Shown: positions 42,801 to 55,228 of the stretch, piece by piece
Position numbering within the stretch: position 1 is the first letter of the stretch
How the letters are laid out: every line of letters begins with the position of its first letter
Assembly: GCA_951406725.2 (NCBI GenBank)
Contig: OX597814.1
Coordinates: 10,788,001 to 10,852,000, forward strand
DNA: 64,000 nucleotides
Origin: Octopus vulgaris
Taxonomy: Eukaryota
Direction: 5' to 3'
The notes under the pieces: model-generated
Told to the model about the DNA's origin: nothing
The model's input: the letters and a program-made list of their open reading frames with translations, nothing else
Databases searched by the model: none
Position numbers and translations under genes: made by a program

Positions 42801-42844
<44 letters not shown>

Positions 42845-42846
<2 letters not shown>

Positions 42847-43100
42847 ACAAAGGGTAAAATTAATTAATTAAGAAGTAATCAATAATTTCACCAAGTAGAA
42901 TTCGGCATGAAAAAGACCATTTCACGGTAAGCTTTAGTAATGCTTTATAATTAGGGTTCAGCAAAGATTTGCTTTACCACATACCGAAGTTTAGAAATAG
43001 CAGTTAAAAAGGAAAAGAAATAGCTAAGGTTTTTTGACTGCTATTTCATCAGAAACTTAGGATATGGTAAAGATCCAAAAAGGAAAACCTAATTATAATA
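42845..43100. mobile_element. Diverged dispersed homologue of the 594-bp array unit, in inverted arrangement
   Basis: 42845-43010 in reverse complement matches unit segment actgctatttctaaa..ttcggtatgtggtaa..catgccgaa..ctacttggtg..aattaattaattt.accct. 43012-43100 matches agaaatagcta..tttgactgctatttc in forward orientation. Flanked by (TA)n. Confidence 0.8.
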
Positions 43101-48221: not shown

Positions 48222-48767
48222 CAGAAGAATCGTGTGTGTATGCACACATACTTACATGTATATATATATATATATAACTTAAAATTGTATGATAGATTGC
48301 CGTCAATTCATTCCCTCTTACCTGTTTGTGTCTGCCTTCCAATTGCTGTTTTTACTGAGATCTCCCTTTTTAGTAGAAGAAATAGCTATAACTCTTTGAC
48401 TGCTATTTCTAAATTCGGTATGTGGTAAGGCAATTCGTTGCCAAACCCTTTATTGCTTAGTATTACTTAAATTTTCCTCGAATGAGGCTTTTACATGCCG
48501 AAGACTACTTGGTGTAATTGATAATTATTCCAAATTAATTAATTTCACCCTTCATTATTACGGATAACCATATTTTATCTCAGTAGATGACCACAGCATC
48601 TTGTTTTGGCTACACGCGGGTGGGAAGGGGCTGGTGACACAATCTTTTCATTCACACATTGAATTTGGTGATACTAGTTGCGGATTCTAGCTCGCTCTGA
48701 TACTGAGTTGAGTTGATGCCTTCTAGTATCTCAAAATTCAATATATAATCATTTATGATTATAGTAT

Positions 48768-48868
48768 TCTACGCTGAAGAGAAAAGAAGTTCTTGGTAAG
48801 ATAGAATTATTTAATATTTAATTCTTATGCTTTCCTAAAAACTTGATTTCGAAACGTACGTCCGTAGA
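48768..48868 (+). ncRNA. Type I hammerhead ribozyme, copy 1 (predicted cleavage after C48862)
   Basis: tctacg-CTGAAGA-gaaa[62 nt]tttc-GAAA-cgtac-GTC-cgtaga. 6-bp helix I, intact CUGANGA/GAAA/GUC core, G-C closing pair of helix II, palindromic ACGTACGT helix III. Confidence 0.85.
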
Positions 48869-49361
48869 TAACTTAAAATTGTATGATAGATTGCCGTCAA
48901 TTCATTCCCTCTTACCTGTTTGTGTCTGCCTTCCAATTGCTGTTTTTACTGAGATCTCCCTTTTTAGTAGAAGAAATAGCTATAACTCTTTGACTGCTAT
49001 TTCTAAATTCGGTATGTGGTAAGGCAATTCGTTGCCAAACCCTTTATTGCTTAGTATTACTTAAATTTTCCTCGAATGAGGCTTTTACATGCCGAAGACT
49101 ACTTGGTGTAATTGATAATTATTCCAAATTAATTAATTTCACCCTTCATTATTACGGATAACCATATTTTATCTCAGTAGATGACCACAGCATCTTGTTT
49201 TGGCTACACGTGGGTGGGAAGGGGCTGGTGACACAATGTTTTCATTCACACATTGAATTTGGTGATACTAGTTGCGGATTCTAGCTCGCTCTGATACTGA
49301 GTTGAGTTGATGCCTTCTAGTATCTCAAAATTCAATATATAATCATTTATGATTATAGTAT

Positions 49362-49462
49362 TCTACGCTGAAGAGAAAAGAAGTTCTTGGTAAGATAGAA
49401 TTATTTAATATTTAATTCTTATGCTTTCCTAAAAACTTGATTTCGAAACGTACGTCCGTAGA
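49362..49462 (+). ncRNA. Type I hammerhead ribozyme, copy 2 (cleavage after 49456)
   Basis: Same sequence as copy 1. Confidence 0.85.
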
Positions 49463-49955
49463 TAACTTAAAATTGTATGATAGATTGCCGTCAATTCATT
49501 CCCTCTTACCTGTTTGTGTCTGCCTTCCAATTGCTGTTTTTACTGAGATCTCCCTTTTTAGTAGAAGAAATAGCTATAACTCTTTGACTGCTATTTCTAA
49601 ATTCGGTATGTGGTAAGGCAATTCGTTGCCAAACCCTTTATTGCTTAGTATTACTTAAATTTTCCTCGAATGAGGCTTTTACATGCCGAAGACTACTTGG
49701 TGTAATTGATAATTATTCCAAATTAATTAATTTCACCCTTCATTATTACGGATAACCATATTTTATCTCAGTAGATGACCACAGCATCTTGTTTTGGCTA
49801 CACGCGGGTGGGAAGGGGCTGGTGACACAATCTTTTCATTCACACATTGAATTTGGTGATACTAGTTGCGGATTCTAGCTCGCTCTGATACTGAGTTGAG
49901 TTGATGCCTTCTAGTATCTCAAAATTCAATATATAATCATTTATGATTATAGTAT

Positions 49956-50056
49956 TCTACGCTGAAGAGAAAAGAAGTTCTTGGTAAGATAGAATTATTT
50001 AATATTTAATTCTTATGCTTTCCTAAAAACTTGATTTCGAAACGTACGTCCGTAGA
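49956..50056 (+). ncRNA. Type I hammerhead ribozyme, copy 3 (cleavage after 50050)
   Basis: Same sequence as copy 1. Confidence 0.85.
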
Positions 50057-50548
50057 TAACTTAAAATTGTATGATAGATTGCCGTCAATTCATTCCCTCT
50101 TACCTGTTTGTGTCTGCCTTCCAATTGCTGTTTTTACTGAGATCTCCTTTTTAGTAGAAGAAATAGCTATAACTCTTTGACTGCTATTTCTAAATTCGGT
50201 ATGTGGTAAGGCAATTCGTTGCCAAACCCTTTATTGCTTAGTATTACTTAAATTTTCCTCGAATGAGGCTTTTACATGCCGAAGACTACTTGGTGTAATT
50301 GATAATTATTCCAAATTAATTAATTTCACCCTTCATTATTACGGATAACCATATTTTATCTCAGTAGATGACCACAGCATCTTGTTTTGGCTACACGCGG
50401 GTGGGAAGGGGCTGGTGACACAATCTTTTCATTCACACATTGAATTTGGTGATACTAGTTGCGGATTCTAGCTCGCTCTGATACTGAGTTGAGTTGATGC
50501 CTTCTAGTATCTCAAAATTCAATATATAATCATTTATGATTATAGTAT

Positions 50549-50649
50549 TCTACGCTGAAGAGAAAAGAAGTTCTTGGTAAGATAGAATTATTTAATATTT
50601 AATTCTTATGCTTTCCTAAAAACTTGATTTCGAAACGTACGTCCGTAGA
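50549..50649 (+). ncRNA. Type I hammerhead ribozyme, copy 4 (cleavage after 50643)
   Basis: Same sequence as copy 1. Confidence 0.85.
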
Positions 50650-50833
50650 TAACTTAAAATTGTATGATAGATTGCCGTCAATTCATTCCCTCTTACCTGT
50701 TTGTGTCTGCCTTCCAATTGCTGTTTTTACTGAGATCTCCTTTTAGTAGAAGAAATAGCTATAACTCTTTGACTGCTATTTCTAAATTCGGTATGTGGTA
50801 AGGCAATTCGTTGCCAAACCCTTTATTGCTTAG

Positions 50834-50864
<31 letters not shown>

Positions 50865-52968: not shown

Positions 52969-53444
52969 TAACTTGGATGGACAGAAACTTTTATGAAGCA
53001 TGTCGAATGGATTCTACAAACAATTCTAAGGTACAGCTTTGTCGTGCCGTTTCTGCGTAAGTGGCCTTACTCAGAGGATCTCCTGTATAATAAAACTATA
53101 TAAGCCATGTATTCATACATAGTTCTTGTCCTGTGGTTACTTTTTCTCTCCACGCATTGTAACCTGTCTTCGCAACGTCACTTTCATTCGACGCCCTTTT
53201 GACAAATAAATGGAATCATCATCGTCACCATCGTCGTCATCATCATCATCATTGTCATCAACATCATCATCATCATCACAACCACTACCACTCATTTCGG
53301 AAAGCACCGATTTGATGCTCTTAGGAATGCGCGCCAATCTACGAAATTGCATTGCATGTGAGTGTAGGACAACCCCGTTTCCACCAACTAGAACAAAAAC
53401 CCCTCGGACAAAACTCCACACGTTAAAGAGCGAAATATATCCCT

Positions 53445-55228
53445 CCCGGTTATATTTAGCACACTTATCAAGGCCAAAGTCCATCCCGATGTCATTACTA
53501 AATTCTTTAACAGTTGTTAGCAGCCCTACTAGTTCTTCGTCATTACTAGCAAACAGCTTCACAGTGTCCATATAAAACAGATGGTTTATTATCATATTGT
53601 AAACTTTGAACCCATACCAAGTGTTATTTAGTTCGTTTGAGAGTGGGATCAGTGCTAATGGGGAGAGGGAAGTTACCTTGAAAGATGTCCATTTGATGTT
53701 GATATTGTTAGCTTGGCTCATCTCATTACTATGGTTTAGAAGGAAAAGTGTGTTCCACTTGGCCATGCTACCTTGTAAGAATTTGGAGATGACATGAGAG
53801 ATCTTATATATCTCAAGGGCCTTGAGTATCCAATTACGTGTAACACTATCAAACGTATGAGTAATTGATCTTTGCACCCATAAGAATTCCTTTTACAGCC
53901 TTTTTTAAGCTTGTGGAAGGATAGATTTCTGTTCAAGGAAAGCGTATTTTCTATCAGTTGATATGGATGTATCTTGTAGATGGTGTTGAAACAGGTTAAG
54001 GGTCAGTAGTTCTTCTGATTTTTTGTGTTTCAGTTTTTGGTAGTAGGTATGCTGTACCTTCTGTCAGCCAGGCAGGTATTTGCTCTGTGTTCTGGAGGAC
54101 ACCACTCAGAGATGCATCGAAATTTTGGTGAACTTTTGTCAGTTGATTTAGCCAGAAATTAGGAATTCGGTCCAGTCCTGGAGTTTTCTATTTGTGAAAC
54201 TTCCTAAGAACACATCTTACCTCTTCTATTCCTATTGCCTCCCATTTCTACTCTTCAAATTCACCTAGTCTCACTTTCTCACGCTCTATCCAGTTAGCTT
54301 TAGCATTTTTATTATTTTTGTTGCTTCATATCTTCTTCCAGAACTCTTCAATTTCTTCAGTCATTGGTGGCTTCTTTACTTCTATTTTCCTTTTGCCAAT
54401 TTCCTTATAATATTTCTTTGCATCCGTCTTCAATATCTAGTTTTGTCGATAAAATTTAATTCGTTTGCCATACCTTTTAAGCCGTTGGGCTCTCAGTTGT
54501 ATTCGCTGTTACAATTGTTCCTTGGTTGCAGGGAGGTTTATAAAATCTTTGATTTTATAGTTTTGCTTGATTTTTCTGGCTCGTTTCGTCTTAACATTTA
54601 CACTTCTAGCAAGTTCATTGAGAACTAATACATCCGCCCGCAGACATTCAATTTCTTTTCGTATTGCTACTTTCCACTTAAGAGGTGTATTGACACGGCT
54701 GGTCTTTTTCTGTGTCATCCTGATACCCAGTTGAGCAGTTACAACTTTAGCGGTAGAATAGATGAGGTTATTTAAGATTGTTAGGTCATTTCCCTTATTA
54801 AGATCTGTCTAAGACCAACATTATATATCATGATTATGTTGTTATTTTTTATGCTGTTTGAAAACTTTGGTAGAGGTTCTCAATTGATGAATTTAGTGAA
54901 CTCAGTCTTGCTGAGTTCTCTCATAAAATATTCATTTGCTTCTGTATCATACTTATTTTGATGTACTTAAGGTAGGTCTCCTTTCTTCTCTCTTCCCGCA
55001 TATCTGTTCTTCGTTATTCTTTCTTCAGCTTCCTCGTTGGAATGCACTGCTCGTACACTGGGTTCTGTGCATCTGTTACCTATTTTATCTGCATTGTTGC
55101 TGTTTTCATTTGGTCTACAAAGAGATTATTTGTGTCCTAATTTGGCTAATTTCAGCGTCACTTTACCTTTTATTCTTAACGATGCCTCAACGTTGATTAC
55201 TTAATTTATTTGCGTCTATATACCAGCG
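53445..55228 (-). mobile_element. Decayed R4/Dong-clade non-LTR retrotransposon (N-terminal region and reverse transcriptase)
   Basis: Motifs across frameshifts: DANKLSNQR, PGLDRIPNFWL, IPAWLTEGTAYLLPK, KGCKRNSYGCKDQLLI, FDSVTRNWILKALEIY, INHLFYMDTVKLFASN..FSNDIGMDFGLDKCAK. Confidence 0.88.

Follow-up and report, generated by a model that had tools for sequence, protein, structure and literature searches.

A dispersed 594-bp retrozyme of Octopus vulgaris that joins (TA)n repeats at two fixed 3'-end sites and whose predicted hammerhead seldom sets the 5' end

The window, i.e. the whole 64,000-nt stretch of Octopus vulgaris DNA that was analysed, contains a tandem array whose left boundary lies within a few nucleotides of the position at which a hammerhead ribozyme, predicted in the repeat unit, should cut the RNA. 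Was this boundary made by the ribozyme and, if not, what determines where such an array begins and ends? The array (48274-50836; Table 1) is single-armed and comprises, as read from sequence and alignment, 4.3 head-to-tail units of 594 bp, namely four full or nearly full units of 594/593 bp and a 195-bp part, at an identity of at least 99.5%; a homopolymer is shorter by one C in each of the two 3'-most units. A search for ORFs of at least 150 aa within the units found none. The first-pass annotation had the array start at 48274, equivalent to 48868 and hence 5 nt from the predicted start of the 3' cleavage product at 48863, and had it stop mid-unit while merging into (TA)n, and both descriptions are accurate: the first unit-matching base (48274, ATAAC...) aligns with 48868, i.e. 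unit +6, and the last one (50836) is unit +195, with TAT in common with the adjoining TA run. The 5' junction is ambiguous over 48274-48276, where ATA is shared, and extends from 48271 if one mismatch is allowed. The TAT at the other side is likely the priming end of the array.

Table 1. Coordinates of the array and of related features in the window
Feature	Position	Strand	Remarks	Basis
Retrozyme insertion	48274..50836	+	5' end at +6, 3' end at site A (+195)	alignment
Left (TA)9 target remnant	48259..48276	.	last 3 nt (ATA) in common with unit +6..+8	sequence
Right (TA)14 target remnant	50834..50861	.	first 3 nt (TAT) in common with unit +193..+195	sequence
Predicted type I hammerhead, copy 1	48769..48867	+	predicted cut between 48862/48863	motif and constrained fold
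Predicted hammerhead, copy 2	49363..49461	+	predicted cut after 49456	alignment
Predicted hammerhead, copy 3	49957..50055	+	predicted cut after 50050	alignment
Predicted hammerhead, copy 4	50550..50648	+	predicted cut after 50643	alignment
Structured module, first-unit copy	48395..48573	+	repeated in each unit; contains site A and most of site B	
Site A, first unit	48450-48472 (unit 182-204)	+	inside the module	
Site B, first unit	48553-48578 (unit 285-310)	+	mostly inside the module	
Second retrozyme family, short two-armed insertion	42844..43098	.	minus arm at the B-equivalent, diverged plus arm at the A-equivalent	

The core 18-mer of the unit has 1334 exact copies in the 2.8-Gb genome, and exact genome-wide searches returned 255 matches for the pattern at unit 169-188 and 539 for the pattern at unit 21-40. 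We mapped 151 distinct loci on many contigs, of which 81 are single-armed and 70 consist of two arms placed head to head; L177 and L192 were dropped from this set as segmental duplicates. The 594-bp element is dispersed and young, and its copies lie in (TA)n. Being non-coding, without LTRs and dispersed as monomers to multimers, it qualifies as a retrozyme; the array in the window is one of its copies, and the element joins the animal non-LTR retrozymes as a further family. It shares with these the AT-rich tandem units that code for nothing and contain a single type I hammerhead, the dispersal as monomers to multimers and a host genome that has Penelope-like elements. Unlike the first-described retrozymes (150-450 bp) it has a 594-bp unit, a length that falls inside the 51-972 bp range given in the available text of a recent preprint (Li, Clavereau and Pollet 2026, bioRxiv 10.64898/2026.07.22.740005), and it also differs from the animal retrozymes in its 70-nt helix II arm.

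Two loci that were considered as autonomous elements have been rejected. L176/L177 (G000:C1:216171500-216188500) reflects local segmental duplication, by which one two-armed insertion was amplified several times along with the LINE fragments beside it and TA tracts of kilobase length; the 3' end of the inverted arm lies at +5. L199 has no long ORF. The 1.8-unit copy at this locus (L199:1700-3350) lies outside (TA)n, between imperfect direct repeats of ~270 bp that show weak matches to Penelope-like loci.

The type I hammerhead motif is present in all four complete units, and its core and stems I and II fold under a constrained prediction. Its parts are a 5-bp stem I, CUGAAGA, the 70-nt helix II arm, GAAA, a palindromic loop 3 and GUC, and among the fetched loci the stem I of this family is intact in 164 of 179 motif matches. 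The unit is thereby predicted to cleave itself. Rfam returned no hammerhead match to the array, neither at the gathering score nor at E up to 10, likely because of the long helix II arm. According to the predicted fold, two copies can pair with each other through the palindromic loop 3 (-11.2 kcal/mol); dimeric minimal hammerheads are described in the accessible part of PMC4209133. Loop 3 is non-palindromic in 56 of the 179 motif matches. A subfamily of ~596 bp (96%; L147, L149, L155 and others), in which one A>G change makes the loop non-palindromic, has spread nonetheless, a hint that cleavage need not be efficient.

The 5' ends were sampled from the loci behind the first 100 matches of each of two internal patterns, i.e. 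unit 169-188 (74 loci) and unit 21-40 (57 loci), which gave 111 loci with 128 arms in total, each arm being counted only upstream of the pattern by which it was found. The first 40 loci, in which long hits are over-represented and ends near +1 thereby inflated, were left out of this test; 11 of them re-entered through the internal patterns. By a first count 116 copying passes entered +8, of which 111 continued past the cut site and five stopped within +1..+8 (2.3 expected). With a distance-dependent hazard there are six ends in +1..+8, one of them shifted by hand from 593 to +2, against 2.8 expected (P 0.066), and 110 of the 116 passes read through; without the copy in the window the numbers are five against 2.7 (P 0.14). 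Widening the interval to +1..+20 gives 12 ends where 7.4 are expected (P 0.07, or 0.11 without this copy). The 5' ends occur all along the unit, and the 8-nt stretch +99..+106 holds more of them (nine) than +1..+8. The ribozyme cut thus seldom sets the 5' end, and about 95% of the copying passes the site. R2-like elements have a 5' end that is set by ribozyme cleavage, so that their full-length copies begin at the cut, which is not what the 110 read-through passes in 116 display.

The proposal of the first-pass annotation that the template owes its 5' end to hammerhead cleavage finds no support in this read-through or in the scatter of the 5' ends, which track microhomology to TA. The mean microhomology at TA-joined 5' ends is 1.98 nt against 0.94 under the null (n=40, of which three were picked by the +6 pattern and one is the copy in the window; 0 of 20000 draws). 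A linear template RNA with a hammerhead-cut 5' end, on which the reverse transcriptase (RT) stopped within 5 nt of that end, is still worth weighing for a part of the copies. Genome-wide, five independent loci end exactly at +2, where a rough estimate expects ~1-2 for a position that was chosen after looking, and seven loci join (TA)n at +2..+8 against three at a control site beyond the ribozyme, the search for which used a longer pattern and covered fewer passes. One of the five loci that end at +2 is the two-armed L221 (G000:C25:14675469-14678487), both 5' ends of which lie within ~2 nt of the predicted cut; no other locus makes as good a case for a template cut by the ribozyme. There may therefore be a weak excess of 5' ends at the cut site, up to about twofold. 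This excess is, however, not significant by any of the four P values given above, the array in the window itself reads through four intact hammerhead sites, and its 3-nt TA junction (ATA, +6) recurs in five other loci. We consider a cut template unlikely as the origin of this boundary; its nearness to the predicted cut is likely a coincidence, and it likely arose by ordinary truncation, with TA microhomology at the joint, rather than by ribozyme cleavage.

The opposite holds for the 3' ends. Of 221 such ends, 205 fall in site A (unit 182-204) or site B (unit 285-310), which together make up 8% of the unit and are centred at ~+195 and ~+298, i.e. about 100 nt apart. TA-rich DNA adjoins 214 of the 221 3' ends against a background of 13%, and 127 of the 162 exactly mapped ends have 2-4 nt in common with the TA run, with 65 ends at 192-195. 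Nevertheless, the TA run at unit 473-479, the best that the unit offers, is used by none of the 162, which means that something other than homology sets the 3' position and that homology only fine-tunes it. The notion that reverse transcription was primed at a TA microhomology in the target is therefore borne out as far as insertion into (TA)n and the shared nucleotides are concerned, and falls short in that the choice of the 3' end takes more than microhomology. Contigs from other public runs also have TA-joined ends, at +195, +292/293 and +305; as to an empty allele, these contigs skip the TA junction. A satellite that spreads by crossover would have ends without a fixed phase or target; the 3' ends here are fixed at two sites and flanked by TA, and the first-pass annotation's argument against ordinary unequal crossover is upheld for the family. 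An ACCCTTYATT-like motif precedes both 3'-end sites (unit 178-187 and 280-289; window 48446-48455 and 48548-48557) and is kept in other families; it may be a priming signal.

How the two sites are used becomes apparent from the two-armed insertions. Of the 70 loci, 59 have one arm ending at A and the other at B, none has A twice or B twice, and the other 11 have an end elsewhere; one arm per site is thus the rule in 59 of 59 classifiable head-to-head insertions, and the same site never occurs twice. For Penelope-like elements, head-to-head arms have been proposed to arise by fold-back self-priming, with the one-end 'tail' trimmed by the endonuclease (PMC3846280 and PMC8557442, in their accessible parts). 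Such an origin predicts that one arm is contained in the other, whereas in 22 of the 55 simple two-segment AB loci the arms are not nested; neither arm was copied from the other there, and fold-back is excluded for those loci. Several B arms, moreover, do not reach A, and the A arm of these loci covers a different stretch. On the side of fold-back, both 5' ends lie at most 12 nt apart in eight of the 55 AB loci, where 2.3 are expected. We regard fold-back as a highly improbable explanation of the two-armed structure as a whole, and it could be true for a minority of loci. Rare variants, 20 of them in eight loci (11 of the 20 come from one locus), recur in all laps of the two arms, and no variant was confined to one arm. 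In 11 of the 55 AB loci both arms exceed one unit, up to 3.2 + 5.9 units. An apparent correlation between the arm lengths (rho 0.62 in all 55 pairs) was rejected as ascertainment, as it drops to 0.24 (P 0.24) in the 25 pairs that were ascertained by pattern.

The arrangement is reminiscent of the twin priming of L1, in which both ends of the cut target prime on one RNA, giving an inverted 5' segment and microhomology at the joint. The second primer site of L1 is variable, whereas both sites are fixed and internal here and the two arms often correspond to overlapping parts of the template, an overlap that needs strand displacement or a circle. Taking the above together, we think it probable that this element was inserted into (TA)n by a borrowed Penelope-type RT-endonuclease that starts at two fixed RNA sites, and that the 5' boundary is a truncation joined to TA. 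A Penelope-type RT-endonuclease would cut (TA)n, after which one DNA end would prime at A and the other at B of the same RNA. When both ends are extended and the cDNA ends are joined, a head-to-head insertion would result; when one end is extended, its cDNA end would anneal to the other TA end at a TA-like spot, which in the array of the window would be the ATA at +6..+8. Later crossover may add units. Given the read-through, the template would have to carry an intact cut-site junction, i.e. to be a ligated circle or an uncut multimer, and we somewhat favour the circle.

The variants by lap point to a bottleneck at the monomer stage, as 34 of the rare variants occur in all laps and 120 in one lap, and only five in some laps; a stable circular fold is also predicted for the unit (z -4.9 against 40 shuffles). 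Divergence within loci was tried as proof of a circle and dropped: its median (0.235%) is not below that to the nearest other locus (0.165%), and in so young a family the test is uninformative. The read-through of the cut site is accounted for equally well if the template is a linear transcript of a source array, multimeric and left uncut by a ribozyme that is slow or idle during mobilisation. Several reports, as far as their accessible text goes, agree with such a template: in vitro, cleavage by minimal metazoan hammerheads is poor (PMC4209133) and RNA that had not been processed served as the main substrate (PMC11167929), and eight of nine Xenopus dimers showed no cleavage (bioRxiv 10.64898/2026.07.22.740005). 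The two-armed loci in which both arms exceed one unit, the monomer bottleneck and the stable circular fold speak against such a transcript, which we hold to be a serious possibility, though not the one to which we lean. Alternatively, short insertions of 1.x units may have been expanded to arrays by later unequal crossover, a process discussed in the available text of the same preprint (bioRxiv 10.64898/2026.07.22.740005). Crossover would likewise spread variants to all laps, and the C-deficient homopolymer in both 3'-most units of the array could reflect nested amplification, or else a sequencing error. It does not account for the fixed 3' ends, for the A+B rule or for the read-through in copies of 1.x units, and arm lengths fall off smoothly, at a hazard of 0.0013-0.005 per nt, and partly shared variants are rare (five). 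We therefore judge expansion by crossover decidedly unlikely as the source of the arrays, and return to a Penelope-type enzyme that acts at A and B on a circle or multimer.

The ~200-nt module that spans A and B has an identity of about 75-87% with other families and a conserved multi-stem predicted fold (37 predicted pairs, of which four have two-sided changes; covariation term +0.38), so that the covariation weakly supports a conserved structure. A second retrozyme family, with its own hammerhead and its own unit (2240 candidates in a first look at the genome), has this module in common and is also represented in the window (Table 1). An inverted arm is found in 20 of 30 B-ended loci of this family, of which 16 end exactly at the A-equivalent, four just short of it and none at B. 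The version of the ACCCTTYATT-like motif at its A site resembles AACCCUAA, which we take to be telomerase-template-like; the resemblance may be due to chance.

The genome has many intact elements that encode an RT with a GIY-YIG endonuclease, i.e. possible donors of the enzyme. One family of these (781 aa; L252-L264, e.g. G000:C16:20835000-20841000) is very young, has a ~4.8-kb unit and many intact copies, and inserts in (TA)n. A distance of 40 nt separates its two 3' ends, and it carries a hammerhead-like motif whose core is of the U3/A8 type; of its 28 ends at (TA)n in 27 loci, 20 lie at +72, one at +69 and seven at +112, positions that are counted from the hammerhead-like motif as placed by eye. 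The single two-armed locus of the family has one of each end site. The repeat of this family resembles the unit at chance level (score 23 versus a shuffle mean of 22.7), and the A-B module was found in the own repeat of none of 50 fetched GIY-YIG stretches (from 150 scored matches among 6136 candidates). These two results, like the uncorrelated arm lengths, count against the insertion mechanism proposed above.

The 594-bp copies have a Penelope-type anatomy: 5' truncation, an inverted upstream arm, two 3' end points and a microsatellite target. With the endonuclease-bearing (EN+) Penelope-like elements they also share partial tandems, (TA)n as the particular target, a hammerhead and microhomology at the 5' junction, the 'tail' there being often present at one end only; unlike these elements they have no ORF, and their two sites are ~100 nt apart instead of 30-40. 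For animal non-LTR retrozymes, circular RNA templates have been proposed with Penelope as a candidate source of the enzyme (Cervera and de la Pena 2020, PMC7229834), and a link between retrozymes and Penelope pseudo-LTRs has been made in the 2026 preprint; neither paper, in its available text, maps breakpoints or describes fixed priming sites or a two-armed structure. In vitro, the RT of the Penelope-like element Poseidon PAc starts at two internal sites that are equal to the 'tail', and the available part of that report gives no difference in start site between strands, in contrast with the strict A+B rule found here (59/59), and describes ribozyme cleavage as dispensable (Frangieh et al. 2024, PMC11167929). 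For Penelope, Neptune and Naiad, the accessible parts of PMC8557442 and PMC3846280 ascribe the one-end 'tail' to resolution by the endonuclease and the inversions to self-priming. The accessible part of PMC13282606 mentions neither ribozyme nor retrozyme, and a search by titles and term counts, with subscription papers outside its scope, found no paper on twin priming at two fixed sites for Penelope-like elements or retrozymes.

How the tandems and inversions of Penelope-like elements arise, and which enzyme and template retrozymes use, are stated as open in the available text of PMC8557442, PMC7229834 and the 2026 preprint. The genomic evidence from hundreds of copies of a young family is clear in two respects: 5' ends set by the cut are rare, and each DNA end has one priming site. 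The two fixed end points, one per side of the two-armed insertions, likely show how Penelope-type enzymes write elements into DNA. A more general reading is that these enzymes prime at two fixed, structurally defined sites on a single RNA, one per DNA end, and that a ribozyme-made circle gives both arms; to us this could as well be wrong as right. If true, the two-site rule would account for the long-puzzling restriction of the Penelope 'tail' to one end, for the inversions with head-to-head arms and for the tandem arrays of retrozymes, and the A-B module would be a portable cis signal for the insertion of cargo into (TA)n. A defined RNA module of ~200 nt and a (TA)n target suit the existing in vitro assay. 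Elsewhere in the window, a degraded LINE-like coding fragment, judged by eye, lies on the minus strand at ~53300-55150, with a 251-aa frame at 53137-53892.
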